IMG/VR virus record: IMGVR_UViG_3300025141_016052
Strand: one strand, 5' to 3'
Length of the DNA stretch: 64,000 nt
DNA from: an uncultured virus (IMG/VR IMGVR_UViG_3300025141_016052)
Lineage: Duplodnaviria; Heunggongvirae; Uroviricota; Caudoviricetes
A program made the translations under genes and the position numbers. Shown in pieces: positions 5,920 to 27,454 of the stretch (the first letter of the stretch is position 1; each line of letters opens with the position of its first letter). Below the pieces are notes generated by a model. It was not told the origin of the DNA. It ran no database searches and saw only the letters and a list, made by a program, of their open reading frames with translations.

Positions 5920-6818
5920 AGATTTTATTGAATAGGAGCCCTATTGAAGGACCCTGGGGCGGAGGCAATCTTCTAGTTAGTGCAGCTTGTAAGTATTTTA
6001 GAGAAGCTGGGCACGAAGTTGTGCACAAATTTGAACCAGATATAGATGTCATCTTTATGCAAGACCCCAGGCCTGGAAATACAGGAATATCAATAAATCA
6101 CATAGCTTCTTGGAAAATTAAAAATCCAAAAGTTAAAATAATACACAGAGTAAATGAGTGTGATGCTAGAAAAGGAACTAAGAATTTAGATAATTTTTTA
6201 AACGAGTGCAGCAACTTTACAGATCATACTGTGTTTGTATCTGAATGGATGAGACAGTATCATATATCAAAGATGTGGAGCTGCAAGAGCACAAGTGTAA
6301 TTTATAATGGTGTAAATCATGACCACTTTAGAAAAAGAGAGAGTATTGATAATGGAAAGATTAATATAGTTACACATCACTGGTCTAATAATAGGATGAA
6401 AGGCTTCGACATCTACGAGTCTATAGACAAATTTATAAAAGGCACAGAGTTTACATTTACATATATTGGAAGAGAGCTTGGGACATTTAAAAATACCAGA
6501 GTCATAGGGCCATTATTTGGAATGCAACTAGGAGAAGAGCTTTCAAAATATGACATATACATCAGCGGATCTCTTTGGGATCCTGGTCCAAATCACATTT
6601 TAGAAAGTATTGCATGTAAAATACCCACATATGTCTCAAAAGACGGAGGAGGTTCAGTTGAATTTGCTGGAAAAGATCATACGTTTAAGGATTTCGATGA
6701 ATTATTGGGAATTATTAGATCAAAGCGCTATGTCAATAATAGCCTATCAGTTAATTCTTGGAGAGAATGTACAGATCAATATCTCGATGTTATAAAGTCA
6801 CTATCTGAACAAGGATAA
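5916..6818 (+). CDS. GT4-like glycosyltransferase
   Basis: GPWGGG, VFVSEW, IYNGV, KG and DPGPNHILESIA. Probable GTG start at 5916 overlapping the upstream TGA (the ORF track starts at 5904). Confidence 0.8.
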   Translation: MKILLNRSPIEGPWGGGNLLVSAACKYFREAGHEVVHKFEPDIDVIFMQDPRPGNTGISINHIASWKIKNPKVKIIHRVNECDARKGTKNLDNFLNECSNFTDHTVFVSEWMRQYHISKMWSCKSTSVIYNGVNHDHFRKRESIDNGKINIVTHHWSNNRMKGFDIYESIDKFIKGTEFTFTYIGRELGTFKNTRVIGPLFGMQLGEELSKYDIYISGSLWDPGPNHILESIACKIPTYVSKDGGGSVEFAGKDHTFKDFDELLGIIRSKRYVNNSLSVNSWRECTDQYLDVIKSLSEQG

Positions 6819-6822
6819 ATAA

Positions 6823-7566
6823 ATGATACTATTGTTGACAATGGCAGGAAAATATAGTAGATTTAGAGAATTTAGCTATGAAATACCAAAGTACTTTTTG
6901 CCACTTTCAAATAGAACTGTAATCCACTATGTTCTTGATACACTGCTTGAGTCAGGCAAGTTTGACGATGTTATTCTTGCTGCAAATATACGAGATGAAA
7001 GGTTTAGACCCCAGTTGATTAGCACACTTTCTGAGTTCGGTCTAGGTGTAGATAATATAAAGTTTATTGAAGACACGCCTGGGCAGTCTATTACAGCACT
7101 TGAAGCCCTAAGTAACCTAAGCGACAACCCAGTTGCAATTCATAATATTGACACCATACTATTAGGGAGAGACTATACTAAAGTTCAGAAAAGCATCTAT
7201 CAGTATGACTGCATTCTAGATGCTTTTCATGCAAATAATTCATCATACAGCTATATTCTCGAGGGAGAAAGAAGTAGTGTGAGTGCAATTGTTGAAAAGG
7301 AAGTTGTTTCAAACATAGCGTCATCAGGGTGTTATTTCTTTAATAGTTTAAAAAAGTTTTGCGATTATTCTAAGATTGCAGCAAATGATAGACAGTATTA
7401 TATCAGTGCAGCAATTACAAAAATGATAGAAGCTGGCCTTTCTGTCAAAAAGACAAAAACGCACAGTGAAGATAGCACGGTGGTCCTTGGAACGCCGAGT
7501 GAATATATAACGTCAATTGGAACTTTTGACCTACTGTATAATCACTATCGGAGAAGTAACAAGTGA
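6823..7566 (+). CDS. Sugar nucleotidyltransferase (NTP-transferase, BcbE-like)
   Basis: TMAGKYSRF...PK signature, TPGQ, HNIDT, EK...SNIASSGCYFF, LGTP. Confidence 0.8.
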   Translation: MILLLTMAGKYSRFREFSYEIPKYFLPLSNRTVIHYVLDTLLESGKFDDVILAANIRDERFRPQLISTLSEFGLGVDNIKFIEDTPGQSITALEALSNLSDNPVAIHNIDTILLGRDYTKVQKSIYQYDCILDAFHANNSSYSYILEGERSSVSAIVEKEVVSNIASSGCYFFNSLKKFCDYSKIAANDRQYYISAAITKMIEAGLSVKKTKTHSEDSTVVLGTPSEYITSIGTFDLLYNHYRRSNK

Positions 7567-8546
7567 TAGAGTATAAGAGATCTCTCTTAAAGGGTGGATC
7601 ACTAGCTGGTACATACCTAATTGAATCTGATTGTGGAAAATTTGTTAGAAAGCAAATTAGTAGAAGTAGTGAGAGAGAGTACGGATTTCAAAGATGGTAC
7701 TCTCAACTAAAAAGACTTCAGAGGTATGAAATTTTATTTCCTGAACTATTTTGCAGAGTTAAAAGATACGGTCTTGAGAACGAGCTTGCCTACTTTGACT
7801 TAGAGTTCTATGAAGGTGCTTTTAATTGTCAAGAATACCTTATGACATGTACTGATGATAAGGAAATAGAGCTAATATTTAATCTGATCATAGATGGTAT
7901 GAAAATGCTTCACAGTGTCAATATACCGTCTTGCAAAGAGTCAATATCACTATACATAGAAGAAGAAGTTTCTCAAAAAATATCTGACTGCCTTCATGAT
8001 GATGAGTTTTTAAAATTTTATAATCTTGATCATATAACATTTAAAGGTGAAAAAATACCATCATTTAGATCGATGTATAGAGATTATAGATCTACATCTA
8101 TTGACCTATATACAGCACCCATAGAGTCATACACCCATGGAAATATCACACTAGAAAATATCTTATATCTCAAGGATAAAAAAAGTGTGATATTCATTGA
8201 CCCATATGAAGAAAACATTATAGACAACCTCTATAATGAATACTCACAAATACTTCAGTCTTGTAATAGCCACTATGAAATATACAACAATGCTAATATT
8301 AATAAAGATGAGATTGAAAATGTAGATATTAAAGTTCCGTATGGTATTAAAAAATTTGATAAACTCTTTAAAGGATTTATGAAAAATAACCTCAGTGATC
8401 AAGAAATTAAAATAGTCAGATCATTTGAGATATCACAGTTTATTAGAATGCTTCCATTTAAAATGAAAGTTGATAAAGAAAAGTCATTTTTATTCTACTG
8501 TCTCGCATCTTATCTGACTAATAGATTTTTGGAGAATGATGAATGA
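7563..8546 (+). CDS. APH/choline-kinase-fold phosphotransferase with a variant catalytic loop
   Basis: Gly-rich GGSLAG, VRK, and HGNITLENIL followed by FIDP (Brenner-type motif with D changed to N). Confidence 0.65.
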   Translation: MIEYKRSLLKGGSLAGTYLIESDCGKFVRKQISRSSEREYGFQRWYSQLKRLQRYEILFPELFCRVKRYGLENELAYFDLEFYEGAFNCQEYLMTCTDDKEIELIFNLIIDGMKMLHSVNIPSCKESISLYIEEEVSQKISDCLHDDEFLKFYNLDHITFKGEKIPSFRSMYRDYRSTSIDLYTAPIESYTHGNITLENILYLKDKKSVIFIDPYEENIIDNLYNEYSQILQSCNSHYEIYNNANINKDEIENVDIKVPYGIKKFDKLFKGFMKNNLSDQEIKIVRSFEISQFIRMLPFKMKVDKEKSFLFYCLASYLTNRFLENDE

Positions 8547-9685
8547 GTATTTGTGATGAATGGACAGTAGCATCTAACCTTCCAGTAGAGTTTAAAGTAA
8601 AGATAGTAAATAATATCCTAGACCCTACAAGTAGTCATCTATTAGAATATGGAGATAGAAATCCAGGAGCAAGAAGGCTTATTCTTGTAGATAGTTGTGC
8701 GTTTCTAGGAAGAGAGAGTCAAATAAGATCTTACTTTGATCATCACGAAATTTTAACAAAGATAGTCTCAATTGATGTTTCTGAGGAAAAGAAAAATTTA
8801 GACAATCTTATGTTTATACTTTCTGCTATGGAGAATTTTGGAATATTGCGTAGAAGTGAGCCTCTAATTTGCATAGGCGGTGGTGTTCTACTGGATATGG
8901 CGGGACTTGCTGCAAATCTATATAGGAGAGGTGTTCCATATATAAAGGTTCCAACAACCTTGCTTGCAATAGTCGACGCCAGCGTGGGAGTAAAGACGTC
9001 AATAAATAATTTTTCTAGAAGAAATAGACTAGGATCATATTATCCACCTGTGGCTTCATATCTTGATAAAACATTTCTAACAACCCTAGATGATAAAGAA
9101 ATTATATCAGCAATGGGTGAAATTTTAAAGATGGCTGTTATTAAAAATCATGAACTATTTACAGTTCTGGAGAATAATATTGAAGAGATACTGGGTCAGA
9201 AATTTTTAGTTGACGGAGCATCTGATAAAATCATATCAATATGCATAGATGACATGATTAAAGAGCTTCAGCCCAACCTGTGGGAAAAAAATCTTAGAAG
9301 GATTGTTGACTTTGGACACTCGTTTAGCCCTCTTTTAGAGATGAGATCACTGGCTGATAAAAATGTCAACAGTATGACACATGGAGGAGCAGTGGCTCTT
9401 GATGTTATATTTTCATCATGTCTATCAAGTCATAGAAATCTATTAGGTAGAGATCAAGTGATTAGGATCATTAACCTTGCAAAGAAGATGAAGCTTGATA
9501 CATTTCATGAATACTTTACAAATGAGCTAATGCTCTGGGAAGCATTAAACGACACAAAAAAGCATAGAAACGGATCCCAAAATCTTCCAACACCGGTCAG
9601 AATAGGTGAGTCAATATTTTTAAACGATGTTACATTTCAAGATGTCAAGTCTACCATTAAGCTCTATAATAGTATTACAAGATAG
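8543..9685 (+). CDS. Sedoheptulose-7-phosphate cyclase, 2-epi-5-epi-valiolone synthase (EEVS)-like
   Basis: DHQS-superfamily motifs IGGGVLLD, YRRGVP, PTTLLAIVDASVGVK and GEILK. EEVS-type motifs MIKELQPNLWE, RRIVDFGH and KKHRNG. Confidence 0.85.
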   Translation: MSICDEWTVASNLPVEFKVKIVNNILDPTSSHLLEYGDRNPGARRLILVDSCAFLGRESQIRSYFDHHEILTKIVSIDVSEEKKNLDNLMFILSAMENFGILRRSEPLICIGGGVLLDMAGLAANLYRRGVPYIKVPTTLLAIVDASVGVKTSINNFSRRNRLGSYYPPVASYLDKTFLTTLDDKEIISAMGEILKMAVIKNHELFTVLENNIEEILGQKFLVDGASDKIISICIDDMIKELQPNLWEKNLRRIVDFGHSFSPLLEMRSLADKNVNSMTHGGAVALDVIFSSCLSSHRNLLGRDQVIRIINLAKKMKLDTFHEYFTNELMLWEALNDTKKHRNGSQNLPTPVRIGESIFLNDVTFQDVKSTIKLYNSITR

Positions 9686-9692
9686 GAATTAG

Positions 9693-10385
9693 ATGAATAC
9701 TATTGTCATAACCGGATCAAGCAGGGGTGTTGGATACTCAACATGTCAAACATTTTTAAATAAAGGGTGGAGAGTTATCGGAATATCAAGAACAGAAGGG
9801 GAGTCAAAAAATCTTTTAAAATTTAAAGACTTTCATTTTTACAGTGTTGATCTTTGTAATCCACAGTCAGTCAGAAAATCATTTTTAAAAATATATAAAG
9901 ATCATAAAAAAATAGATGTTCTTATAAACTCTGCTGCAATTTTTGAATCCATTAGATTTCTAGACCAGTCTTTTGATAAAATTGACAAGATTATAGATAC
10001 AAATCTAAAAGGAGTAATTTACTCAACAAGGTGTGTAATAGAAGGTATGATTTCACAGAAATCTGGTAAAATTATCAATGTATCTTCTGTTTCTGGGTGT
10101 CATGGAATAGAAAATCAAGCTGTATATTCATCAACAAAGCACGCACTAACGGGATTCGCAGACTCACTAAACCAGGAGGTTATTAGGCACGGAGTTCAGG
10201 TTGTAACAATTTGTCCTGGAGGAATAGACACACCCTTATGGAATAAGAGAAATCCTTATCATGGTGATAAAAGTAGACTACTTACCCCAGAAGATATATC
10301 ATCTCTAATATCCTTTATTGTTGATCAACCCGATAGAGTTGTATTTAAAAGCATTGTTCTCTATCCGGATAATGAGATCCATTGA
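9693..10385 (+). CDS. Classical short-chain dehydrogenase/reductase (SDR)
   Basis: TGSSRGVG, INSAA, NVSS, YSSTK and CPGGIDT. Confidence 0.9.
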   Translation: MNTIVITGSSRGVGYSTCQTFLNKGWRVIGISRTEGESKNLLKFKDFHFYSVDLCNPQSVRKSFLKIYKDHKKIDVLINSAAIFESIRFLDQSFDKIDKIIDTNLKGVIYSTRCVIEGMISQKSGKIINVSSVSGCHGIENQAVYSSTKHALTGFADSLNQEVIRHGVQVVTICPGGIDTPLWNKRNPYHGDKSRLLTPEDISSLISFIVDQPDRVVFKSIVLYPDNEIH

Positions 10386-10418
10386 TAAACTTATATTTTT
10401 TTAGAGTTACAATATTTT

Positions 10419-10913
10419 ATGAGATTTATATCACACAGAGGAAATTTGAATGGCGTAGACGACCTTAGCCATACAAGAGAAAACTCTCCCGATTATATTG
10501 ATTATGCAATTAGACAAGGCTTTGAAGTAGAGGTTGACATAAGATTGACATCTGGATATGTTCCTCCGGGAAATTTTTACTTAGGTCATGATCGTCCACA
10601 ATATGAAGTTAGCCTAGACTGGCTTATTGAAAGAAAAGATAAGCTATGGCTTCATACTAAAAATGTAGATTCTCTAAGGTGGTTCTTAAATTCAAGAATA
10701 GAATGGAATGTATTTTGGCACCAGGAAGATGATTACACAATTACAAGCAAGGGATACATTTGGGTATACCCTGGCAAGCTTCCGTGCTATGGATCAATTA
10801 TTGTAATGCCTGAAAAGACAAATCACACATTCAAATTAATTAGAATGTGTGGGGGCATCTGCAGTGACAATATAAAGAAATATTATGAAGAATTTAAAGC
10901 TGGTAATTTTTGA
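10419..10913 (+). CDS. Glycerophosphodiester phosphodiesterase-like protein (short form)
   Basis: ISHRGN, EN, VEVDIR, LGHD and GICSD motifs. Confidence 0.75.
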   Translation: MRFISHRGNLNGVDDLSHTRENSPDYIDYAIRQGFEVEVDIRLTSGYVPPGNFYLGHDRPQYEVSLDWLIERKDKLWLHTKNVDSLRWFLNSRIEWNVFWHQEDDYTITSKGYIWVYPGKLPCYGSIIVMPEKTNHTFKLIRMCGGICSDNIKKYYEEFKAGNF

Positions 10914-11502
10914 CTTAGACGGTGTTCTAGTTGATGCATGTGAGTGGCATAGAGTTGCTCTAAATGAAGCATTAAAGCAAGTATGCGACTATTCAATATC
11001 CAGTGATGATCATGAAAATACTTTTAATGGAATTCCTACAAAAGTAAAGCTAAAAATTCTTACAGAAATGGGAAAAATACCAAAGAGCTGTCATGAAGAA
11101 GTTTATAAAGTTAAGCAAAAAAAGACAAAAGAGATAATTTTACAAAAATCAAAAAATAGACCTGAAAAGATTAAAATGATTAATGAACTAAAAAGAGAAG
11201 GAATAGGTGTCTGCTGTTTTACAAATAGCATTAGAGAGACAGCGGAGCTTATGCTTTCAACATCTGGTGTCTTGGAATTGCTTGATATGATTGTGACAAA
11301 TCAAGATGTAGTACTTCCCAAGCCAGATCCAGAAGGCTATTTAAAAATATTAAATCATTACGGCATAAGCCCAGAAGATTCAATCATAGTGGAGGATTCT
11401 CCAAAAGGAATTGAGGCAGCAATTATGTCAGGATGTAGAGTTATTGGTGTTTCTGGAGCTGATGATGTTAATTTAGAATTATTTGGAGAATTTTTAAAAT
11501 GA
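10885..11502 (+). CDS. HAD-superfamily phosphatase
   Basis: FDLDGVLVD, TNS, KPDP and VEDSPKG. Confidence 0.9.
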   Translation: MKNLKLVIFDLDGVLVDACEWHRVALNEALKQVCDYSISSDDHENTFNGIPTKVKLKILTEMGKIPKSCHEEVYKVKQKKTKEIILQKSKNRPEKIKMINELKREGIGVCCFTNSIRETAELMLSTSGVLELLDMIVTNQDVVLPKPDPEGYLKILNHYGISPEDSIIVEDSPKGIEAAIMSGCRVIGVSGADDVNLELFGEFLK

Positions 11503-12209
11503 ATATTTTAATACCAATGGCAGGAGAAGGGAGCAGGTTTAGAAAAGAAGGCTATACATTTCCAAAACCACTGATAGAAGTCTGTGGAAAGCCAATGATA
11601 CAGTGTGTTGTTGAGAATCTTGATTTTGATGCAAATTATATTTTCTTAGTTAGGGCAGAGCACCTTTCAAAATATAACATAGAGTCTGTTCTAAAATTCG
11701 TAACAAACGGAAGATACGATATCGTTACTGTAGAAGAGCTAACAGAGGGAGCTGCATGCACTGCACTTCTAGCAAAAAATCTTATTGATAACGATGAGGA
11801 GCTATTAATAGCCAATTCAGATCAGATTGTCGAATATTCAAAAGAAAACTTTAATACTATTAGAAGGTTTACTAATTTTGATGCATCAGTTTTTACATTT
11901 AGAGCAGTTCACCCAAAATGGAGCTTTGTAAAGACAAATTCAAGAGGAGTAGTTACAGAGGTTGCAGAAAAAAATCCAATATCTGACATAGCAACTTGTG
12001 GAATCTATTACTATAGAAAGGGATCTGATTTTGTCAAATATTCAGAAAATATGATTAAAAAAGATATAAGGGTCAATAATGAGTTCTACATAGCACCCGT
12101 ATATAATGAACTAATATTAGATGAAAAATTACTTGTTCCGTTCTTTGTAGACAAGATGCACGGGCTAGGAACACCAGAAGATTTAAAAAAATATCTCTCT
12201 ATTCAGTAA
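11499..12209 (+). CDS. Sugar nucleotidyltransferase (BcbE-like/dTDP-glucose pyrophosphorylase-like)
   Basis: IPMAGEGSRF...PKPLI, TEGAACT, ANSDQ, EKNPIS, NNEFY and LGTPEDL. Confidence 0.85.
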   Translation: MNILIPMAGEGSRFRKEGYTFPKPLIEVCGKPMIQCVVENLDFDANYIFLVRAEHLSKYNIESVLKFVTNGRYDIVTVEELTEGAACTALLAKNLIDNDEELLIANSDQIVEYSKENFNTIRRFTNFDASVFTFRAVHPKWSFVKTNSRGVVTEVAEKNPISDIATCGIYYYRKGSDFVKYSENMIKKDIRVNNEFYIAPVYNELILDEKLLVPFFVDKMHGLGTPEDLKKYLSIQ

Positions 12210-12227
12210 TATATCTTAGGAGAAAAA

Positions 12228-12563
12228 ATGAAAAGAATTGAAAAGCCCTGGGGATATGAGATAATTTGGGCAGAAACAAATGACTATGTAGCAAAGGTTC
12301 TTCATATAAACAAAGGTCATAGATTGTCAAAACAGTATCATGAGATAAAAGAGGAGACAGTGTACATAGTGGAGGGAAATCTATATAATATCGATGATAA
12401 GGAAAATATTCAAAAATTTCTTCCAGGAGAATCTTTTCATGTCTTTCCTAACCAGGTTCATAGATTTTGTGCAAACGACTCATCAGTAACACTAGTTGAA
12501 GTAAGCACGCCACATCTTAATGATGTAGTTAGAATGGAAGATGATTATAGTAGACTAGACTGA
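12228..12563 (+). CDS. Cupin (mannose-6-phosphate isomerase type II-like)
   Basis: KPWG, LSKQYH..KEET, VHRF and EVST; AGGAG RBS. Confidence 0.8.
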   Translation: MKRIEKPWGYEIIWAETNDYVAKVLHINKGHRLSKQYHEIKEETVYIVEGNLYNIDDKENIQKFLPGESFHVFPNQVHRFCANDSSVTLVEVSTPHLNDVVRMEDDYSRLD

Positions 12564-12565
12564 TT

Positions 12566-12937
12566 ATGAAAGTACAAAGGCCTAAAACAGTTATATGTGA
12601 CATAGACGGAACCCTAATAGAGCACAGGGGTGCAGCTTCTAGACATATGTCAAATAGCCCAAAAATTTTACCATATGTCATAGACAGACTTGAAGAATGG
12701 GACCTTAAAGGATATAGCATAGTTCTTTTGACAGGTAGGAAAGAGTCTATGAGAAACAAGACAGAGCAACAATTAGAAATGTGTGGAATATTCTACGATC
12801 AGCTTATCATGGGTGTTGGCGGAGGACAGAGAATCTTGATAAACGATCTTAAGCCTACTGATAGTGATCCCAATAATCCTACGGCAGTTGCAATTAATTT
12901 AAAAAGAAATGAGGGACTGGAAAATGTCAAAATATGA
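12566..12937 (+). CDS. Small cap-less HAD phosphatase (BcbF/EcbF-like)
   Basis: ICDIDGTL, LTGR, YDQLIMG and IND. Confidence 0.75.
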   Translation: MKVQRPKTVICDIDGTLIEHRGAASRHMSNSPKILPYVIDRLEEWDLKGYSIVLLTGRKESMRNKTEQQLEMCGIFYDQLIMGVGGGQRILINDLKPTDSDPNNPTAVAINLKRNEGLENVKI

Positions 12938-13394
12938 CTATATTAAAGATGGATGGATAAAAAAAGCGCTCGAGGACTACAAGGAACCAATTGATAGCAA
13001 AAAGTCAAATGTTCTAACACTAAGTGAATATACGGTCAATAAGCCCTGGGGTTTTGAAAAATGGATGGAGTTAAATGAATTTTATGCATTTAAGCTAATT
13101 CATATGAAAGCTGGAAATAGAAGCTCAATGCAAAGACATGAAAAGAAAGTTGAAGCAAATTATGTCTTTGAGGGAACTGCTGAAGTTTTATTAGAAAATG
13201 AAAGCGGTGAAATGGAGTTATTTACATTTGGACCTGGGACTGGATGGGTAGTTCCTGTAGGTAGAAAGCATCGTGTCATTGCAAAGACAGACTATACAGC
13301 AGTTGAAGTCTCCACACCACATCTAGATGATGTTCAAAGATTTCAAGATGACACCAATAGAGATGACGGAAAGATTGAATCTGAGCATGGATGA
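12924..13394 (+). CDS. Second cupin (paralog of 12228-12563)
   Basis: NKPWG, SSMQRHEKKVE, KHRV and EVSTPHLDDV. ATG 12924 preferred over 12909. Confidence 0.8.
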   Translation: MSKYDYIKDGWIKKALEDYKEPIDSKKSNVLTLSEYTVNKPWGFEKWMELNEFYAFKLIHMKAGNRSSMQRHEKKVEANYVFEGTAEVLLENESGEMELFTFGPGTGWVVPVGRKHRVIAKTDYTAVEVSTPHLDDVQRFQDDTNRDDGKIESEHG

Positions 13395-14967
13395 AAATAT
13401 TGAAACATTTAAGCTTTGCATACTTGCCGCGGGAAGGGGTACAAGAAATACTTCAATAGTTGGACTTCATAAAGCCCTTCTTCCTTTAGAAAATAGACCC
13501 GTTATATCTCATATACTGGATAAATTTCCAGAAAATATTGAAGTCATTATACCAGTTGGATATAGGTCAGATCAAATAAAATCATACTTAAACTACGTAT
13601 ATTCTAAAAAAAATATTAAATTTATAGATATTGATAATTTTGATGGCATGGGATCAGGCCCGGGATACAGCTTGCTTCAATGCAAAGACCATCTTCAATG
13701 TCCATTTGTATTTACCTCAGCTGATACTGTACTAGGAGATGATGACTTTATAGACAGTGTTATTGAAAATTGGGTTGGAGTATCAAAAATAGATAGAGAT
13801 TTATCATCTAGCTATTGTCTTACAAAAGGGTCAGGGACCCTAGATGACTTTTACTACGGAAAAGGTGATACTGCATTTATTGGAATTGCAGGTGTTAAAG
13901 ATTATCAAAATTTCTGGAACTCTCTTGAGAATAATGTCATTATAAAGAATGAAAAGCAAGTCATACACGGATTTGATAATCTTGAGAACATTAAGCTAAA
14001 ATTACTTGGATGGTATGATACAGGAAATAATGAGTCATACGAGCTAGCTAGAAAAAAATTTAAAAATGAAGTTGTTGCAAATAAAAGCTCTGAAGCGATC
14101 TTTATTGATAATGAATGTGTTGTCAAGTATTTTGATGATGAAAATAAATCTTCTCTAAGGCTTGAACGATCCAAGTTTATTAAAGATACATGCCCAGAAA
14201 TTACAAAGTTAAATTCAAATATGTTTGGATATTCATTTATAAAAGGTGAGATGCTTTCAAATCTCAGGAGTGAAAGATATTTTTATAGCTTTTTAGATTT
14301 TTTTAATGAAAACTTTTTATCGAAAAGATTTAAAAAAGATGATTTATTTTTAAAAGACTGTGCCTCAATGTATCAAGATAAAACAAGAGAAAGAATGAAA
14401 TATTTCTCAGGAACATCTCTTGACAATATACGAAATATAAATGGAGTCTGTGTAGATACAATTGAAAATATATTTTCTAAAATTGACTGGGATTTAATAT
14501 ATAAAAAATCAATTCCATCTTATTTTCATGGAGACTTACAGCCGGAAAATATAATTTATGATATTTCAAATGAGAGATTTCTAACAATAGACTGGAGAGA
14601 GTCTTTTGGAAAAAGTATAAGCATAGGTGATGCATACTATGATCTTGGAAAATTATATCATGGACTCGTTATAAATGGGCAAACAATACTTAAGGGAAAT
14701 TATTTTATAAGCGAATCAGGAGATACAGCTTCAATTGAATTTCCAATTAGAAGTAATTTATTTTCTCAGCTAGTTGTACTAAGAGAATTTTGTGAGAATA
14801 ATAACATATGTTGGCTAAATGTTAGACTTGCTGGTGTTTTAAATTTTATTAATATATCTCCACTTTATCAAAATTTTGATGGTGGAAAGTATGGTAGATT
14901 TTTATTTCTTCTAGGAAAACTATTGCTAACAAGAATTATAAAAAATAAACCAGGAGAATTAATTTAA
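13387..14967 (+). CDS. Nucleotidyltransferase-kinase fusion (LicC-like N-terminus plus APH/choline kinase C-terminus)
   Basis: ILAAGRGTR...KALL, SADT and WYDTG, then HGDLQPENI, IDWRE and YDLGKL. Start 13387 overlaps the upstream stop. Confidence 0.8.
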   Translation: MDENIETFKLCILAAGRGTRNTSIVGLHKALLPLENRPVISHILDKFPENIEVIIPVGYRSDQIKSYLNYVYSKKNIKFIDIDNFDGMGSGPGYSLLQCKDHLQCPFVFTSADTVLGDDDFIDSVIENWVGVSKIDRDLSSSYCLTKGSGTLDDFYYGKGDTAFIGIAGVKDYQNFWNSLENNVIIKNEKQVIHGFDNLENIKLKLLGWYDTGNNESYELARKKFKNEVVANKSSEAIFIDNECVVKYFDDENKSSLRLERSKFIKDTCPEITKLNSNMFGYSFIKGEMLSNLRSERYFYSFLDFFNENFLSKRFKKDDLFLKDCASMYQDKTRERMKYFSGTSLDNIRNINGVCVDTIENIFSKIDWDLIYKKSIPSYFHGDLQPENIIYDISNERFLTIDWRESFGKSISIGDAYYDLGKLYHGLVINGQTILKGNYFISESGDTASIEFPIRSNLFSQLVVLREFCENNNICWLNVRLAGVLNFINISPLYQNFDGGKYGRFLFLLGKLLLTRIIKNKPGELI

Positions 14968-15599
14968 TGAGTCATAGTCTTATAGACCTCTATAAATCAG
15001 AGTCAGCATCAGTTGTAACATCGTTAGATAATAATGAAATTAATGCGTTTCTTAATATGGTGCTAGATGCCTATGAGAAAGAGAGTAAAATATTTGCATG
15101 TGGAAACGGAGGAAATGTTGCCTCTGTTGGAAACCTAGTTGTAGATCTTAACATGCACCCATTCGTATCAGACGACAAGTCTTCTAGAAATACATCTAGA
15201 AATAAATTTTGTTCAATAAGCCTCTGTCAGTGTCCTGCAACAATTACTGGAATTTCAAACGACCTTGGATTTGAGCATATCTTTACAGAGCAGCTAAGAT
15301 ATCAAGGGTCTAAAGGCGATATTTTGCTTGGAATCACTGGATCAGGTAATTCAAAAAATGTTATTAATGCATTAAAGTTTGCAAAGACAGTGGGGATGAA
15401 ATGTATTGTGATTACTAGAAGTACAGGTCACTGTCTTGCTGATGATGTATGTGATCTTGTTGTAAGGGTGAGAGGGGAATCTACATTTCCGGGCCAGACT
15501 GGAAAGAACAATAATAATTTTCACTTTGAAGACTGTATTTCAAAAATTACACACATTGCTGTAGGTATTCTTAAGAAAAGAGTCCAAGATGGAAATTAG
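14967..15599 (+). CDS. gmhA: SIS-domain sugar-phosphate isomerase, divergent GmhA-like
   Basis: ACGNGG, TGISNDLGFEHIF and GDILLGITGSGNSKNV. Several canonical metal ligands look altered. Confidence 0.7.
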   Translation: MSHSLIDLYKSESASVVTSLDNNEINAFLNMVLDAYEKESKIFACGNGGNVASVGNLVVDLNMHPFVSDDKSSRNTSRNKFCSISLCQCPATITGISNDLGFEHIFTEQLRYQGSKGDILLGITGSGNSKNVINALKFAKTVGMKCIVITRSTGHCLADDVCDLVVRVRGESTFPGQTGKNNNNFHFEDCISKITHIAVGILKKRVQDGN

Positions 15600-16368
15600 T
15601 CCAAATAATATTAGAAAAATATCTCTTGAGATGATTTATAATTCTAAATCAGGGCATGTTGGGGGATCTTTTTCTATTGCAGAGATAGTCTCATACCTTT
15701 ATAACAACTATCAACTTTCCTCAGGCAAAGAGGACAAGCTTATACTATCTAAGGGGCATGCTGTCCCTGCCATCTATGCAGCTCTTCATCTATCTGGGGT
15801 AATTACCAAAGAAGAAATATTGACTTTTAGAGAGATAGACTCCAGGCTTCAGGGACACCCAGATAAGGTTAGACTGCCAAATGTAGTAGCCACTACCGGA
15901 TCTCTTGGACAGGGGTTGAGTATTGCCATTGGGCATGCACTATCACATAAACTAAGAGGCAATAGTCAAAAAGTTTTTTGTATTGTCGGAGATGGTGAAA
16001 TGCAAGAGGGTCAAGTTTGGGAATCAATAATGCTCGCGCCAAAATTTAAACTAGATAATCTTTATTTTATAATTGACTCTAACGGTGCTCAAAATGATGG
16101 AAACGTCAAAGATATTCTTTCTTTAGATATCGGCAAGCCCATTAAAGATAAAATTCAATCTTTTGGCTGGAACACTTCAGACATAGATGGGCATAGCGTC
16201 TCTGAAATTGACATAGCTGTTAAAAACGTAATTAAGGGCGTTCCCAGCTGTATAATTGCTAACACAACCAAGGGTAGGGGAGTATCTTTTATGGAAACCT
16301 ATGAATGGCATGCCAAGGCACCAAATGATGAAGAGTTTAAACTTGCAATACAGGAGCTATCTAAATGA
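15589..16368 (+). CDS. Transketolase N-terminal (TPP-binding) subunit
   Basis: SGHVGGSFS, LSKGH, LQGHP, TGSLGQG, GDGEMQEG and WH. Confidence 0.92.
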   Translation: MEISPNNIRKISLEMIYNSKSGHVGGSFSIAEIVSYLYNNYQLSSGKEDKLILSKGHAVPAIYAALHLSGVITKEEILTFREIDSRLQGHPDKVRLPNVVATTGSLGQGLSIAIGHALSHKLRGNSQKVFCIVGDGEMQEGQVWESIMLAPKFKLDNLYFIIDSNGAQNDGNVKDILSLDIGKPIKDKIQSFGWNTSDIDGHSVSEIDIAVKNVIKGVPSCIIANTTKGRGVSFMETYEWHAKAPNDEEFKLAIQELSK

Positions 16369-17294
16369 AAGCAACTAGAGATGGTTTTGGTGAGGGACTT
16401 GTAGACATCGGATCTAAAAATAGTGATATAGTCGTATTAAGCGCTGATCTATCTAAAGCTACTCGAACTGCAAAGTTTGCAAAAGAGTATCCAGATAGAT
16501 TTTTTGAATGTGGGATTGCTGAATGTAACGCGATAGGGATTGCATCAGGACTTTCTGAAAATGGATTTTATCCAGTTTTTTCTTCTTTTGCTTCCTTTCT
16601 TACTGGAAAATATGATGTAATCAGAGTTTCTGCGTGTTACTCAAATGCAACTATGCTCTTGGTTGGCACACATGCAGGTCTGGCAATTGGAAAAGATGGT
16701 GTAACTCAAATGGGGCTTGAGGATGTCTCTCTTATGAGGGCAATTCCAAACATGAAAGTATTTCAACCAGCAACATCGAATCAGACAGTTCAAATGCTTA
16801 GGGAGATAGTAAAGACAACAGGGCCCTCTTATCTAAGGATAGGAAGACAGCCTGTTCCAGAGTGCTTTTCCACTCATGAGGATATTTCCCTCGGAGAGGC
16901 GCAAATTATTTCTGATGATGGTGAATCAGATATATGCTTTGTTACATCTGGGTGCATACTTCACGATGTCATAGAGGCAGCAAGCTTTTTGAGAAGTCGT
17001 AATAAAAAAATATCTATTCTTAATTTTCATACAATCAAACCTTTCGACAATATCACATTGGAAAAATTTGCTAAAAGATCCAGTCTTATTGTATCTGTTG
17101 AAGATCATAGTACATCTGGAGGTCTAGGATCTCTTGTATGTGAATCTTTGTCTCAAAGCTATCCATCCAGAGTTTTAAGAATAGGGCTGGATGACGTATT
17201 TCCAGAATCAGCTCCTCCAAAAGATTTATACAAAAAATATGGACTTGATTCAGATGGAATAGTCTCTAAAATAGAAAAATTTATTAAAAGATGA
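16365..17294 (+). CDS. Transketolase C-terminal subunit
   Basis: SADL, ECGIAE, GKDGVTQ, YLRIGR, IKPFD and EDH...GGLGS. Confidence 0.92.
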   Translation: MKATRDGFGEGLVDIGSKNSDIVVLSADLSKATRTAKFAKEYPDRFFECGIAECNAIGIASGLSENGFYPVFSSFASFLTGKYDVIRVSACYSNATMLLVGTHAGLAIGKDGVTQMGLEDVSLMRAIPNMKVFQPATSNQTVQMLREIVKTTGPSYLRIGRQPVPECFSTHEDISLGEAQIISDDGESDICFVTSGCILHDVIEAASFLRSRNKKISILNFHTIKPFDNITLEKFAKRSSLIVSVEDHSTSGGLGSLVCESLSQSYPSRVLRIGLDDVFPESAPPKDLYKKYGLDSDGIVSKIEKFIKR

Positions 17295-17971
17295 TCAATA
17301 AAGATACACAGATGTGCATATCTCTTGCAAAAAAAGCAGGAAACTTTGGCTGCACAATTCACAATGCTGCATTTAAGCATATGGGTTTAAACTTTATCTA
17401 CAAGTCATTTTCAACTAATGATATTGAAAAATCAATAGACGGAATAAGAGCGCTAGGAATAAGAGGTGCAGGTATTACAATGCCGTACAAGATAAGTGTA
17501 CTTGACTGTGTTGATAAAATATCAGAAGATGTTCAAAAAATAGGATCTTCTAACACTATAGTAAACGATAATGGAGTACTAACTGCGTTTAATACAGATT
17601 CATTTTCAGCATATGAAACTTTAAAAAAATATTCTAATGTTAATGAGCTATTCATACTTGGAAATGGAGGGTTTTCCAAAGCTGTTCAGTTTTCTGCAAA
17701 TAAGCTTTTTAGCTCAGTAAGTGTTATAACGAGAAAGAACTGGAAAGAAATTTCTGACATAAGAGATGGTGTTATCTTTAACTGCACACCCGTTGAAAAC
17801 ATTGTAACTCACAATAGTAATACATTTATAGATTGTATAATATCTACATCTTCTGGAAGAGAGATATCTCTAATACAGGCATCTAGACAGTTTGAACTCT
17901 ATACGGGAACCAGCTTTCCAATGAACTATATTGAGAATAATTTTGATCAGTTAATGAGAATAATTCCATGA
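17291..17971 (+). CDS. Shikimate dehydrogenase-like protein, SdhL subfamily
   Basis: The N-terminus MINKDTQMCISL...NFG..HN...LNFIYK...RALGIRG...MPYK...NTIVNDNG..AFNTD matches my recollection of H. influenzae HI0607/SdhL. It also has GNGG and NCTP. Confidence 0.8.
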   Translation: MINKDTQMCISLAKKAGNFGCTIHNAAFKHMGLNFIYKSFSTNDIEKSIDGIRALGIRGAGITMPYKISVLDCVDKISEDVQKIGSSNTIVNDNGVLTAFNTDSFSAYETLKKYSNVNELFILGNGGFSKAVQFSANKLFSSVSVITRKNWKEISDIRDGVIFNCTPVENIVTHNSNTFIDCIISTSSGREISLIQASRQFELYTGTSFPMNYIENNFDQLMRIIP

Positions 17972-18699
17972 AAAAGGTTGCTGTCTGTATTTCAGGTCAC
18001 ATGAGATCATTTAAAGACGGATATGCCTGCTTAGAAAGATTTTTAATTAGCAAAAATCCTAAATTTAAATTTTATTTCTTTATTGATACATGGAATAGAA
18101 TTGATTGGAGAACTGATGGCAAATTTAATCTAACTAAGAATTTTTTAAATGAAATTTGTGAGATATATGATCCTGTGTATATTAACATTGAAGATGAAAA
18201 AGAGTGGGATACAAGTAGGTTTATGAGGTATGTTGATGATATTACATGTCTTAAAAAAGGATACGGTGGAATAAGATCAAAGGGTGAGCATATTCCATCA
18301 ATGTACTACAAGATTAATTCATGCAATCAAGCAAAGATCAAATATGAGAAAGATAATAATATAATCTTTGATGCAGTAATAAGACATAGATGCGACTTTA
18401 GCCTTTCTATGCCTGTCTATATAGAAGAAATTCTAGAAAGATTTAATGACACAATATTTGTTCCAAGGCTAGATAATCCCCCAAAGTATAGCTGCACATC
18501 AAAAGGATATCTAAAGGATATGTTTGCAATATCTTCTTCAGAGAATATTGACTATTATTCATCTGTCTATAGAGATCTCGATAAAATTTGTGAGCAAATA
18601 AAAGAGTTTAGACCAGAGCCAATTCTTTATAGGCATTTAGAAAATAATGATAAAATTCAATATTGTGAGATAGAATATAGCTGGGATATAATAGAATGA
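17968..18699 (+). CDS. Hypothetical glycan-associated protein (putative GT-A-like transferase)
   Basis: VAVCISGHMR, SMYYK, FDAVIRHRCD and DMFA..S, a pattern I recognise from phage and polysaccharide loci. Function unverified. Confidence 0.5.
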   Translation: MKKVAVCISGHMRSFKDGYACLERFLISKNPKFKFYFFIDTWNRIDWRTDGKFNLTKNFLNEICEIYDPVYINIEDEKEWDTSRFMRYVDDITCLKKGYGGIRSKGEHIPSMYYKINSCNQAKIKYEKDNNIIFDAVIRHRCDFSLSMPVYIEEILERFNDTIFVPRLDNPPKYSCTSKGYLKDMFAISSSENIDYYSSVYRDLDKICEQIKEFRPEPILYRHLENNDKIQYCEIEYSWDIIE

Positions 18700-19496
18700 G
18701 AATTGGAATTGCAATTTCTGTATACAATAAGGCTGCAGAAGTAGCTACAAATATTAATTTAATCAGGAAGCATTGGAAGCATAAAGATGTATTTATAAGC
18801 GTTTGCTGTAATCATCCAGAGACATATGAAAAGCTTAAATCTCTAGAAATTGATTCACTCGTTGAGGGGATTAATTATCCAGTTTTTCAAAAATCAGACC
18901 TAAGGCTTAGACAATATGACTGCATTAAAAAATCTGTAACATCTGCGGCAAAAAATTCTGATTATGTCTTTCACTGGCACTCTGATGCTTATTGTCTAGA
19001 TAGTGATACTCTTATTTCAATCATAGAAGATATGAATAAGAATAATTCACTAATTGCAGCAAGAGGTGTTTGGAAAGACTATAAGTCATTTAGAGGGCCA
19101 AATAAGGCACCTAACGGAGAAGTTGATGATCATTTTTTCTGCATAGACTCATCTCATCTTATAGACTCTGGAATGTATAACAACGATGACCAAGTTCAGT
19201 ATATTAAGGAAATATCTGGAATTTATTGTTCAGAAGGAATATTGGCAACATTGATGCAAAATGTTACACCCCTTGAGAAAATACACATTTATTCAAATAT
19301 GAGTGAGTGTGAAGTTTCTCCTGACATTATTAATGACAGTAGGTTCTTTTATAATGATGACATACCCCATAGAACGCTATGTCCATTTAATCTAGATAGA
19401 AAAAGAATGCTTCTACACTCAGATGATATTACTCATACAAAGAGATTTTTTTCACAATTAAACGTTCCCAATAGTTTAATTTGTGAGTCACTATAG
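18696..19496 (+). CDS. Putative GT2-like glycosyltransferase
   Basis: IGIAISVYNK start and YVFHWHSD (DxD-like position). Confidence 0.5.
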   Translation: MRIGIAISVYNKAAEVATNINLIRKHWKHKDVFISVCCNHPETYEKLKSLEIDSLVEGINYPVFQKSDLRLRQYDCIKKSVTSAAKNSDYVFHWHSDAYCLDSDTLISIIEDMNKNNSLIAARGVWKDYKSFRGPNKAPNGEVDDHFFCIDSSHLIDSGMYNNDDQVQYIKEISGIYCSEGILATLMQNVTPLEKIHIYSNMSECEVSPDIINDSRFFYNDDIPHRTLCPFNLDRKRMLLHSDDITHTKRFFSQLNVPNSLICESL

Positions 19497-19506
19497 TGGA
19501 TTTAAA

Positions 19507-20325
19507 ATGATAGAGACGACTATTTGCATATCTTCGTATAATAGGCCAAGAAGATTAAGAGAGATGTTGAGGTCATTTTTTATGACAAATACTTATGATC
19601 TTAAAAAGCTTGAGATTATAATAGTTGATAATGGATCAACAGATAGCAGTGTTATTGACTTTATTAGATCGTATACCCCTGATTGCAAGTATAGGTTTAT
19701 ACTAAATGAAAAAAATGACTATCCTTATTGTCTAAGATACTCTAAGGTACAGGCAATAGAAGTAGCAGAGGGTGATTACTTTATAGATCTACCTGATGAT
19801 CATATATTTGTAGCTCAAACAGGGTGGATAGACGAATGCATAAAGAGGATTAAGAAAGATCAATCTGTAGGTTGTATAAACTATTATGCATATCCTGGAT
19901 ATAGATTTGGCAAGTCAAATAATAAAATGCATCCAGATAAAAGCTCTCCAAATTTCTGTGTATCAGTATTAAAAGGATATTCAGATTTTCACATAATGTC
20001 AAAACATGCATATGAAAAAATTGGACCATATAGGTATGACCTTGGATCTGGTGCTGAGGGAGAATATATGGATAGAGCTCTAGAGAGGGGATTTTTTAGA
20101 AACTTAATGATGTTTCCAGTTGCAATTTGTATGAATCAGGGTAAGTTTGGCGAGGGAGAATTTGGATTTGAGCTAGTTAGGCCAATTGAAAAAGAAAAAT
20201 ACGACTCAGATCTTATAGGATTTATGAGAAAAAGACATCCAGAAAAGGTTTCATTTCCAATTCACAATGAAGCATTGATAGAATTTTGTTTAAAAGAGGG
20301 ATATATTAGAGTGAAAGATGAGTAA
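19507..20325 (+). CDS. GT2 glycosyltransferase
   Basis: ISSYNR, IIIVDNGSTD and GDYFIDLPDD. ATG 19507 preferred over GTG 19483. Confidence 0.85.
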   Translation: MIETTICISSYNRPRRLREMLRSFFMTNTYDLKKLEIIIVDNGSTDSSVIDFIRSYTPDCKYRFILNEKNDYPYCLRYSKVQAIEVAEGDYFIDLPDDHIFVAQTGWIDECIKRIKKDQSVGCINYYAYPGYRFGKSNNKMHPDKSSPNFCVSVLKGYSDFHIMSKHAYEKIGPYRYDLGSGAEGEYMDRALERGFFRNLMMFPVAICMNQGKFGEGEFGFELVRPIEKEKYDSDLIGFMRKRHPEKVSFPIHNEALIEFCLKEGYIRVKDE

Positions 20326-21133
20326 TTGGCATGATGATCTATGTGAGTATTATTCTGTTGATGCTGAGACAGCTTTAGAGCTAGGAACAAGGGCAACAGG
20401 TAGAACTCCAGACCTTCCAGCATCTAAGACATGTAAGGCAGTGTCAGGAATGACATACGAGGATATTTGGGCACTATCTGATAGAAAGACAACAGAGTCA
20501 GTATTTCAATTCTATCATGATCAAGGTGCTTGGAGCACATTTAGACAATGTGTAAGGCACAAAGACATGTCTCAGTATCATATTCAGTTAATAGGATCAA
20601 TTCTAAACTCAGGAACTCCTAGGGTCGGATATCACATATGCGAATATGGTTGCGGAGTTGCACCATTTTTAAATAGCTTTGTCTCGTTTATTACAGCTGA
20701 TAGTTCTAGATGCAGGATATCCATTACAGATGTTGAAGGATGTGAGCATTTTAACTTTGCAGAGTGGAGACTAAAAAAGAAAATAAGCGAAAGATCACTA
20801 AACATTGATCTTAACATTAAACCTGTAACACCTACATCACTTCCAGCATACGACGAAGGTTTAGATCTTGTTTTAATATTTGAAGTACTAGAGCACGTCC
20901 CAAGTCCATTAGCGACAATTAAAAATATATACAATCAGCTTAATGATGGCGGAATTATACTTGAGAATTTTATTAAGCACGATGATGATCATGATGATGA
21001 TGGTCCAGATTTAAGGTCTGCTGCAATTGAAAGAGAAGAGTATTATTCTTTTTTAAGTAAAAATTTTGAACTTATAGTGGGAAGATCTGAAGCAGATGCC
21101 CCGAATGAGACTAGAGCATGGAGAAAGAAATGA
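20318..21133 (+). CDS. Class I SAM-dependent methyltransferase
   Basis: CEYGCG motif I and FEVLEHVPSP...LNDGG. Confidence 0.85.
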   Translation: MSNWHDDLCEYYSVDAETALELGTRATGRTPDLPASKTCKAVSGMTYEDIWALSDRKTTESVFQFYHDQGAWSTFRQCVRHKDMSQYHIQLIGSILNSGTPRVGYHICEYGCGVAPFLNSFVSFITADSSRCRISITDVEGCEHFNFAEWRLKKKISERSLNIDLNIKPVTPTSLPAYDEGLDLVLIFEVLEHVPSPLATIKNIYNQLNDGGIILENFIKHDDDHDDDGPDLRSAAIEREEYYSFLSKNFELIVGRSEADAPNETRAWRKK

Positions 21134-21891
21134 AAAAAATAGACATTAGAAAAAAATTAGAAGAAATTGAAATGCCAGTAAACTCTTTAGTACTGGGTGA
21201 TTTTGATGCAATTGGAGAGTTTACAGCTAAAAAGGTAAGAGATCATAGTAGTGAACTCTATAAGACAGCTGGATGTTTTTTTAGGCCAAACTATGAGAGA
21301 GGTCTTTTAATATATTCTCTAATTAAAAAGTATAAGCTAACATCTTTTCTAGAGATTGGGTTTGGAAGAGGATATTCCACGTTTTGTGCAGCAAAGGCAT
21401 TTAATGATATAGGTGTACAGGGTCGTATTGTAACAATTGATCCTAACTTTGACAAAGACCTTATAATGAGACTTAAGTCTACATTTCCAAGTCACTGGTT
21501 TTCAATGATTGACTTTAGAGGGGGGTATTCAAAAGATATATTACCAGACATTAAAGAAAATTTTGATATGGTCTATATTGATGGTGATCACACTTATGAA
21601 AGTGTCAAGTCAGACTGGGAATTGTGCAAAGATAGATATAATGCATTTCTTTTATTTGATGACTATCATCTTCCAACAAAGGATAGTGGGCCAGGAATCC
21701 AGTGTGCAAAGTTAATAGATGAAATTGAAGATAGCACAAAAGAACTTATTATAATGGATAGACGTATATTTTTTGATGATAGAAGAATACCAGATGAAAA
21801 CATAGACTACGGTCAGGTCTTATTGACAAAAGAGTTCACACCCTCAGGGACTAAAGAGATTGAGCATATTGATGAGTGGCTAAATAGCTAA
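21130..21891 (+). CDS. Class I SAM-dependent O-methyltransferase (Methyltransf_24-like)
   Basis: LEIGFGRGYST, TIDP, YIDGDHTYE and FDDY. ATGA overlap at 21130. Confidence 0.85.
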   Translation: MKKIDIRKKLEEIEMPVNSLVLGDFDAIGEFTAKKVRDHSSELYKTAGCFFRPNYERGLLIYSLIKKYKLTSFLEIGFGRGYSTFCAAKAFNDIGVQGRIVTIDPNFDKDLIMRLKSTFPSHWFSMIDFRGGYSKDILPDIKENFDMVYIDGDHTYESVKSDWELCKDRYNAFLLFDDYHLPTKDSGPGIQCAKLIDEIEDSTKELIIMDRRIFFDDRRIPDENIDYGQVLLTKEFTPSGTKEIEHIDEWLNS

Positions 21892-24004: not shown

Positions 24005-24005
24005 G

Positions 24006-27452: not shown

Positions 27453-27454
27453 AG

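Follow-up and report, generated by a model that had tools for sequence, protein, structure and literature searches.

C7-cyclitols are the warheads of the actinomycete glycosidase inhibitors acarbose and validamycin and are also sunscreen precursors; to our knowledge they have been described neither as building blocks of surface glycans nor as viral products. [quoted passage not shown] A preliminary description of this DNA proposed that the run is a single carbasugar pathway and that no viral pathway of the kind had been described. The latter still stands, as no report of an EEVS from a virus or an O-antigen locus was found in the full text of Creative Commons-licensed PubMed Central papers and bioRxiv, nor a viral case in a 2026 review of cyclitols, in which the words phage, virus and polysaccharide do not occur.

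For the GDP-valienol branch of acarbose and validamycin biosynthesis, the relevant passages of PMC9200736 name AcbC and ValA as the EEVS, AcbM and ValC as 7-kinases, AcbU as a 1-kinase, AcbJ as a HAD phosphatase, AcbR and VldB as nucleotidyltransferases and AcbS and VldE as pseudoglycosyltransferases, together with AcbL and AcbN. A cassette of four genes at the start of the viral run, which we call module M1, would likewise begin with an EEVS-type enzyme acting on sedoheptulose 7-phosphate and would proceed by a reductase, a phosphorylation and a nucleotidyltransferase to a nucleoside diphosphate (NDP)-cyclitol. AcbM and ValC are ROK-like according to the same passages (PMC9200736), whereas the M1 kinase is predicted to have a protein-kinase-like (PKL) fold with an HGN motif. 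M1 further differs in consisting of four genes only, without an epimerase, a dehydratase, a HAD step or a GT20-type transferase, and in lying in phage and surface-polysaccharide loci instead of secondary-metabolite clusters.

Three other systems bear comparison. NDP-heptoses are made by GmhA, HldE or HddA, GmhB, and HldC or HddC, and a second part of the viral run, module M3, follows the same logic of isomerase, kinase, HAD-IIIA phosphatase and nucleotidyltransferase starting from sedoheptulose 7-phosphate; unlike these pathways, M3 has a PKL kinase fused to an NTP_transf_3 domain in place of a ribokinase or GHMP-type enzyme, scores below the equivalog cutoffs, and has an added split transketolase, a cupin and an SdhL-like gene. 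AmgK/MurU and LicA/LicC are pairs of a kinase and a nucleotidyltransferase, and M1 resembles these pairs and NahK in that a PKL-fold kinase and a nucleotidyltransferase would activate a hydroxyl compound in two steps; it differs in that its carbocyclic substrate would be synthesized de novo by the cyclase next to it and in that Asn takes the place of the catalytic Asp of the kinase. Finally, the glycan island of the T4-like cyanophage S-CAM9 carries, among glycosyltransferases and epimerases, counterparts of the three genes of an intervening module M2: a nucleotidyltransferase gene at 56% identity, a HAD gene and a small GDPD-like gene; T4-like cyanophage isolates, unlike the window, gave no tblastn match to the EEVS.

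We find that the region 6823–18699 is probably a mosaic, in which at least three sugar-activation modules move independently of one another, with M1 directed to an NDP-C7-cyclitol and M3 following NDP-heptose logic. M1 most likely makes an NDP-activated C7-cyclitol destined for glycans, and M3 reads best as a separate route of the NDP-heptose type.

The EEVS-type cassette

The cyclase gene lies at 8543–9685 on the + strand, as do all genes of the run, and encodes 380 residues. Pfam DHQ_synthase (113 bits) and DHQS_C (74 bits) assign it the two-domain fold of 3-dehydroquinate synthase (DHQS) over its full length, and residues 7–372 align with residues 32–397 of ValA (4P53) at 274.8 bits (E 9.8e-81), compared with 169.1 bits for 5TPR, 119.4 for the best DHQS and 85.1 for DOIS among the other solved structures. 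5TPR, deposited under the name '3-dehydroquinate synthase', we take to be the Anabaena DDGS. The segments EILK, VDFGHSFSP, THGGAV and KHRNG are as in ValA, whereas 5TPR has IAYGH and LTRDG, and the viral protein sides with ValA at both sites where the two differ within otherwise conserved motifs (VDFGH against IAYGH, KHR against LTR). These are presumably the published EEVS/DDGS fingerprint sites, residues Asp281 and His360. Relatives bear the names EEVS or sedoheptulose 7-phosphate cyclase in their source records. In a set of 31 relatives, E193 and H259 never vary and H280 hardly does. The section of PMC4426668 that cites Kean et al. 2014 separates EEVS from DDGS by two sites and refers to a 14-residue fingerprint. 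The alignments thus point to a genuine EEVS-type sedoheptulose 7-phosphate cyclase whose nearest solved relative is ValA, and the preliminary assignment to this class, as opposed to AroB, is borne out by the scores of ValA and the best DHQS. The proposed product is 2-epi-5-epi-valiolone or a close stereoisomer.

Downstream of the cyclase, the gene at 9693–10385 encodes a protein of 230 residues with the ITGSSRGVG (TGSSRGVG), SSVSG and YSSTK motifs of a classical short-chain dehydrogenase/reductase (SDR) and an adh_short score of 166 bits (E 8e-49). The first gene of the cassette, 6823–7566, encodes a putative nucleotidyltransferase of the sugar-1-phosphate type (247 residues; phrog_3980). It scores 31.7 bits with Pfam NTP_transferase against a cutoff of 21.2, its N-terminal stretch MAGKYSRF is a variant of the G-x-G-(T/S)-R signature, and its best solved relatives are RmlA and 4EVW, an NDP-sugar pyrophosphorylase; no NCBIfam equivalog comes near its cutoff. 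At its stop codon, the gene shares 4 nt with the start of the one that follows.

That gene, 7563–8546, encodes a protein of 327 residues that itself has no Pfam match, although 11 of 21 relatives match Fructosamin_kin. Its AlphaFold2 model (pLDDT 93.4) retrieves with Foldseek MTR kinase, FN3K, NahK and APH(2'') (2PYW, 3JR1, 4OCJ, 5BYL) at probability 1.00, E 2.5e-8 to 1e-6 and TM 0.5–0.6, and LicA (4R7B) is also among the matches; the model thus suggests the bilobal fold of the protein-kinase-like small-molecule kinases. Invariant in the 21 sequences are the ATP/Mg ligands: L9–L14 (the LKGGSL Gly-rich loop), K30 (the beta3 Lys, FVRK), N199 (the Asn of HxDxxxxN) and D213 (the equivalent of the DFG Asp). 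The family is small, with 104 representatives at E ≤1e-30 among 1.84 billion proteins. One member, P0160 (728 residues), has an HGN kinase-like domain (3–289) fused to a DHQS/EEVS domain (395–686), a Rosetta-stone fusion that links the kinase-like and cyclase genes. More distant matches include fusions to HAD, nucleotidyltransferase and LPG_synthase_TM domains.

The 480-residue family member P0131 has a C-terminal GIY-YIG/NUMOD3 homing-endonuclease domain, and six proteins of sister clades (P0242, P0243, P0249, P0252, P0256 and P0268) have an N-terminal LPG_synthase_TM (MprF-like) membrane domain, five with HGD and one, P0256, in which the motif pattern was unmatched.

The preliminary description suggested a search of viral metagenomes for the same gene neighbourhood, and such a search recovered it. 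Viral contigs scanned with the single cyclase protein gave no match; the cyclase alignment was required, and with it we found 57 other IMG/VR loci with the EEVS cassette. Where the flanks suffice, the kinase-like gene lies directly upstream of the EEVS in every viral locus (48/48), the SDR lies directly downstream in all 54, and 33 of the 35 loci with both flanks have all four genes, counting either type of nucleotidyltransferase. Seven viral loci were sampled, and genes for DNA polymerase, clamp loader, head maturation protease, tail fibre, PhoH or DnaB are found within 10 kb. A search of species genomes with the kinase-like protein yielded 24 bacterial loci, in 22 of which the EEVS adjoins, and the nucleotidyltransferase is present in 16 of the 16 with flanks. 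The annotated ones are surface-polysaccharide (O-antigen or capsule) loci of Polynucleobacter, Marinomonas, Rhodoferax and Actinomarina, flanked by genes for Wzz, DegT, GT2, GT9, ManC, Gmd and UDP-GlcNAc 2-epimerase. The cultured bacterium Polynucleobacter sp. 80A-SIGWE (L060) has its cassette in a locus of the O-antigen type. Conservation of the core order in 57 viral and 22 bacterial loci is more than chance would produce.

Neither the cyclase nor the kinase-like protein matches any family in PHROGs v4, and tblastn of phage records with the cyclase gave matches at only ~30% identity, in 15 records named Salmonella, Escherichia, Acinetobacter and similar; those that are annotated are 3-dehydroquinate synthase (aroB).

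From the gene content, folds, motifs and synteny observed here, we infer the chemistry of both modules, for M1 by homology step by step. The EEVS-type cyclase would convert sedoheptulose 7-phosphate to 2-epi-5-epi-valiolone or its stereoisomer, and the SDR would reduce the ketone. The kinase-fold protein would then phosphorylate this carbocyclic polyol; the likeliest site is the pseudo-anomeric hydroxyl at C1, a position favoured because the nucleotidyltransferase is RmlA-like and the kinase folds near the anomeric kinases NahK and MTR kinase. The RmlA-like enzyme would yield the NDP-C7-cyclitol, with which glycosyltransferases of the island would decorate a glycan. Foremost among these would be the product of 17968–18699 (+ strand; DUF7796, phrog_13607), which has a predicted GT-A (GT6-like) fold: its AlphaFold2 model has a pLDDT of 78, and the top Foldseek matches are BoGT6a and the ABO transferases (E 2e-6, TM ~0.5). 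The DUF7796 clusters are 96–100% viral, and a homologue is the most frequent companion of the cassette, occurring in 21 of the 57 viral loci, usually directly upstream of the nucleotidyltransferase. We regard this GT-A protein as a candidate transferase for the M1 product.

The putative heptose-type module and the genes before it

M3 comprises the genes from 12566 to 17971. It opens with a small phosphatase of the HAD-IIIA/PNKP type (12566–12937, 123 residues; HAD_PNKP 35.4 bits against a cutoff of 27.6, DIDGT motif), which is syntenic with the following cupin and fusion genes in L087 and in the IMG/VR contigs L088 and L089. The cupin (12909–13394, 161 residues) resembles the ManC C-terminus and phosphomannose isomerase (MannoseP_isomer 34.8 bits) and is 86% identical to its counterpart in L089. 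The fusion protein (13327–14967, 546 residues) joins a nucleotidyltransferase (Pfam NTP_transf_3), whose best solved relative is a CTP:inositol-1-phosphate cytidylyltransferase, to a PKL kinase with a weak APH match and the canonical motifs HGDLQPEN and IDWRE. Next comes a SIS-domain isomerase (14967–15599), with 47 bits to SIS_2, which is above cutoff, and 85.8 bits (E 3e-24) to TIGR00441 gmhA, whose cutoff is 209; every one of its 13 best solved relatives is a phosphoheptose isomerase (GmhA). The transketolase (15589–17294) is split into an N half (15589–16368; NF004559 256.8 bits) and a C half (16365–17294; 288.1 bits), with Transketolase_N, Transket_pyr and Transketolase_C domains and 66–72% identity to L088 and L089. 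The last gene (17291–17971, 226 residues) encodes a putative SdhL-like dehydrogenase with a shikimate-dehydrogenase N-domain and a shortened nucleotide-binding domain; a single-protein scan with it gave no match, and its best model is PRK12550 and its best structure 1NPY (HI0607 of H. influenzae; E 5.6e-40 to 4e-38 over residues 1–146), which has GSGG where the viral protein has GNGG. A 53% identical homologue lies inside M3 of L089.

L088 and L089 contain the small HAD, cupin, fusion and SIS genes and both transketolase halves in one block at 44–86% identity, and no EEVS cyclase was found anywhere on these two fragments by a search that did find it in two positive-control records. The HAD–cupin–fusion trio also occurs in Marine virus AG-345-E15. 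No homologue of the genes 12228–17971 lies within ±10 kb of the other 57 viral cassettes, and among the bacterial loci one, L076, carries a split transketolase at a distance of about 6 kb from its cassette. In the route we propose for M3, the transketolase would provide sedoheptulose 7-phosphate, the GmhA-like isomerase would convert it to a heptose 7-phosphate, the fused kinase would form the 1,7-bisphosphate, the small HAD would remove the distal phosphate, and the fused nucleotidyltransferase would activate the product, with tailoring by the cupin and the SdhL-like protein. The transketolase could supply both M1 and M3, and some cross-talk between the two modules is possible because acarbose valienol, in the passages of PMC9200736 that treat it, is processed by the same sequence of kinase, phosphatase and nucleotidyltransferase.

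M2 lies between M1 and M3. Its first gene (10419–10913) encodes a small protein (phrog_34507) of a family ~150–165 residues long that has no Pfam match of its own. Over 50 residues the family profile matches 7E0V, a GDPD structure (E 2.6e-4), an invariant motif HRG..EN..E.D..HD is present (H6 R7 G8, E21 N22, E38 D40, H57 D58), and Pfam GDPD is found in 2 of 10 relatives, weakly (best E 0.021); the identity as a GDPD-like phosphodiesterase is thus only weakly suggested. A GDPD-like gene lies within 10 kb of the cassette in 10 of the 57 viral loci. The HAD-IA hydrolase at 10885–11502 is beta-phosphoglucomutase-like (Pfam HAD_2 E 1.3e-30; TIGR02009 96.5 bits, below cutoff; phrog_8468 and phrog_29467). 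The nucleotidyltransferase at 11499–12209 (Pfam NTP_transferase, phrog_3980) is 55–57% identical to genes of the Synechococcus phages S-CAM9, S-PRM1, B3 and DSL-LC03; in those four phages, and in the loci L004 and L009, the homologue is fused to a HAD domain. All three M2 genes occur together in S-CAM9 (NC_031922). The cupin of 111 residues at 12228–12563 (Pfam MannoseP_isomer and Cupin_2) is not clearly assignable to a module; its homologue in L089 lies elsewhere, beside a GT2 gene.

The fifteen open reading frames (ORFs) from 6823 to 17971 are closely packed, most neighbours overlapping by 1–68 nt or sitting 2–33 nt apart, which agrees with the preliminary account of a tight, co-directional run. 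Pfam and NCBIfam reproduce its labels for thirteen of them; the other two, 7563 and 10419, required further work, from which the kinase fold emerged by AlphaFold2 and the phosphodiesterase only as the weak suggestion given above.

Alternative readings of the gene run

Several observations weigh against the reading of M1 as a source of an NDP-cyclitol for glycans and of M3 as a heptose route. The motif corresponding to HxDxxxxN (the Brenner motif) reads HGN.TLEN in all 21 aligned members of the kinase-like family, with Asn for the catalytic Asp. A profile alignment (hhalign) with the kinase domain of the 13327 fusion, to which BLASTP finds no significant similarity, sets HGN on HGD..PEN with N on D (probability 94.8%). 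Among the 99 best matches in the library of 1.84 billion proteins, 82 have HGN and 4 have xGN, none of these 86 has Asp, and the remaining 13, being short fragments, lack this region; in the more distant matches, which belong to sister clades, HGD prevails (35 of 51). So well conserved a replacement looks like a change of function instead of decay, and the 7563 protein may be a poor kinase or may perform other chemistry; mainly because of this Asp-to-Asn change, the phosphorylation step is not to be taken for granted. As to transfer, none of the 56 window proteins scanned with Pfam is a Glyco_transf_20 (GT20/OtsA-like) protein of the VldE/AcbS type, a dehydratase or epimerase for a valienol-type donor is not evident in the conserved cassette, and we know of no pseudoglycosyl transfer from a saturated cyclitol, the expected cassette product. 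For the cyclase, EEVS and EVS are not separable from sequence here. In M3, the GmhA-like, HAD and SdhL-like proteins and the transketolase halves all score below the NCBIfam equivalog cutoffs. An Asp of the SIS protein faces the Glu of the GmhA stretch FAAEMT, which we take to be the catalytic Glu, and the C-terminal His region is outside the alignment. The SdhL-like protein is ~45 residues short in its nucleotide-binding domain (residues 146–186 face 149–232 of the 271-residue 1NPY chain). Lastly, L088 and L089 are fragments of 46–48 kb (CheckV 13% complete), and the absence of EEVS covers these fragments only.

The preliminary description joined all fifteen genes into one cyclitol pathway, in which transketolase would feed the EEVS, kinases, phosphatases and reductases would lead to an NDP-cyclitol, and GT-B pseudoglycosyltransferases would transfer it. 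Such a pathway is favoured by the co-directional, tight packing, by the split transketolase near the cassette of L076, and by the acarbose route, where 7-kinase, 1-kinase, HAD phosphatase and nucleotidyltransferase follow in turn in the passages concerned (PMC9200736) and into which the M3 gene classes would fit. We nevertheless consider it very unlikely, as M3 stands intact as a unit without EEVS in L088 and L089, the genes 12228–17971 are near none of the other 57 viral cassettes, and M2 occurs in S-CAM9, a record outside the 15 phage records matched by the cyclase. The GmhA-like isomerase of M3 points to a heptose, and the absence of a GT20-type transferase among the scanned proteins speaks against the proposed GT-B transfer. 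Nor is the claim supported that every enzyme class needed for an NDP-cyclitol and its transfer is present, given that no dehydratase or epimerase is evident in the cassette and that the kinase is without the canonical catalytic Asp. Treating the transketolase and heptose-type genes as a separate module guards against over-reading the cluster.

Saturated carbasugars are poor glycosyl donors, and because of this a transfer of cyclitol phosphate is a serious alternative. The NDP-cyclitol would then donate cyclitol phosphate to give a phosphodiester-linked glycan, by the logic of LicA/LicC/LicD and Tar systems with their CDP-alcohols (glycerol, ribitol and choline phosphate). The 7563 protein shares its predicted fold with the choline kinase/APH family, with LicA among the structural matches, a GDPD-like gene follows the cassette here and is near it in those 10 viral loci, and the M3 nucleotidyltransferase has an inositol-1-phosphate cytidylyltransferase as its nearest structure. 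The M1 nucleotidyltransferase, however, has its closest relatives among sugar-1-phosphate enzymes of the RmlA type and not among alcohol-phosphate cytidylyltransferases, the most frequent companion of the cassette has a predicted GT-A fold, and no LicD- or TagF-type transferase was recognised in the Pfam scan of the window proteins; we hold this alternative to be unlikely. Somewhat less credit still goes to the view that the 7563 protein is no kinase, that the cassette makes a free or differently modified cyclitol, such as an inhibitor or a signal, and that the nucleotidyltransferase serves another sugar of the island. The family-wide Asn, where sister clades keep Asp, would be accounted for in this way, as would the lack of the nucleotidyltransferase in 2 of the 35 viral loci with both flanks. 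It is opposed by the conserved ATP/Mg ligands (the LKGGSL loop, FVRK, N199 and D213), by the presence of the nucleotidyltransferase in the 33 remaining loci and in 16 of 16 bacterial ones, and by the bacterial setting, which is that of surface-polysaccharide loci, not of secondary-metabolite clusters.

Two further cluster types were considered and rejected. A cluster of the AHBA/aminoshikimate type would bring together a split transketolase with HAD, kinase, DHQS-like and shikimate-dehydrogenase-like genes; against it, no DAHP-synthase or pyridoxal phosphate-dependent AHBA-synthase family was matched in the Pfam and NCBIfam scans and the cyclase is ValA-like. Against a gadusol-type route, the two methyltransferase genes (at 20318 and 21118) lie at a distance of 10 kb and do not accompany the cassette in other loci.

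A wider proposal, which we put forward tentatively and regard as doubtful at this stage, is that phages and the bacteria that share the cassette build glycoconjugates with a hydrolase-resistant carbocyclic C7 pseudo-sugar, activated through an Asn-for-Asp kinase-fold enzyme whose chemistry may differ from the usual base-assisted phosphoryl transfer, and fed here by a phage transketolase. If M1 does make an activated carbasugar, the auxiliary metabolism of phages would extend to carbocycle chemistry, phage or host glycans could resist glycosidases, with a bearing on receptor masking and phage–host arms races, and a compact four-enzyme route to NDP-carbasugars would be at hand for glycoengineering. 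In that case the Asp-to-Asn kinase-like enzyme would also merit a mechanistic study of its own.

Phage origin and the surrounding glycan island

The window has a G+C content of ~35%, and its + strand carries almost every gene. Baseplate genes are found at 38858–41165, encoding gp25 (PF04965, above the Pfam threshold) and a gp6-like wedge protein, which shares ~30% identity with baseplate proteins from Microcystis phage Mel-JY01, Flavobacterium phages and a 484-kb uncultured phage; no match to the wedge protein turned up in five IMG/VR records with the cassette, which says little because all five are fragments. A 16.9-kb IMG/VR record (G001) matches 38517–55400 at 99.07% identity, a part of the window that does not include the cyclase, and its CheckV completeness of 5% implies a genome of a few hundred kb. 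The first 19.7 kb of the window are identical to a 95-kb metagenome contig and the first 9.3 kb to a contig from another data set. The gene run is matched at 95–100% identity in other marine metagenomes, in several marine runs besides the two possible source runs, and no RNA data set is among the runs listed. Four further runs, each from a different study, cover every one of the 30 bins of 6000–25999 at ≥95% identity, and short contig pieces span the junctions EEVS–SDR–10419, 12228–12566, fusion–SIS and SIS–transketolase.

The idea that the contig is cellular or chimeric, and the pathway bacterial instead of phage-borne, draws on the island genes, which are typical of bacterial polysaccharide loci, and on the bacterial genomes that contain the same cassette. 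It is extremely improbable, since gp25, the gp6-like protein and the giant fibre-like ORFs are all on the same strand, the structural part of the window is itself an IMG/VR record, L089 preserves the order of M3, UDP-glucose dehydrogenase and exonuclease, in the seven sampled cassette-bearing loci genes for phage replication or structure are found within 10 kb, and the window was recovered in several runs. A crude hydropathy scan predicted two or more membrane spans in none of 35 island proteins, and export genes of the Wzx/Wzy type are therefore absent. The contig is no accident of assembly, and its source is an uncultured marine phage of the myovirus type.

One contig, from run X7, joins 10417 directly to 18113 and bypasses M2 and M3; the joint is weak, its shorter side having 21 letters, and would place the DUF7796 gene straight after the SDR, as in many other phages. 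Loose contig ends concentrate at the gene boundaries 10393, 11495–11499, 12185, 17304 and 18052, a pattern that would fit a shuffling of modules among co-occurring relatives.

Two giant ORFs lie 3' of the baseplate genes, 42709–46485 (1258 residues) and 47463–51476 (1337 residues), each with a Laminin_G_3/ConA-like lectin domain; they are probably fibres or receptor-binding proteins.

The glycan island itself spans 398 to ~34.5 kb of the window. Pfam finds in it nine glycosyltransferases, which together with the baseplate genes confirm the setting given in the preliminary description, as well as an SDR epimerase/dehydratase, two methyltransferases, a UDP-glucose dehydrogenase, a sulfotransferase, a NeuB-type synthase and a CMP-sugar cytidylyltransferase. 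The last two (CTP_transf_3 and NeuB/SAF nonulosonic-acid synthase) stand on either side of a GT2 gene at 26019–29150, and the island may also make a sialic-acid-like sugar. Directly after the DUF7796 gene, 18696–19496 encodes a protein of 266 residues; neither it nor its longer homologues (30–38% identity), which adjoin the cassette in metagenome-assembled genomes of Fibrobacteria (L058) and Woesearchaeota (L071), has a Pfam match. The sole sizeable gene on the minus strand, 30341–31144, encodes a Sulfotransfer_2 protein resembling galactose-3-O-sulfotransferase, a homologue of which lies inside M3 of L088.

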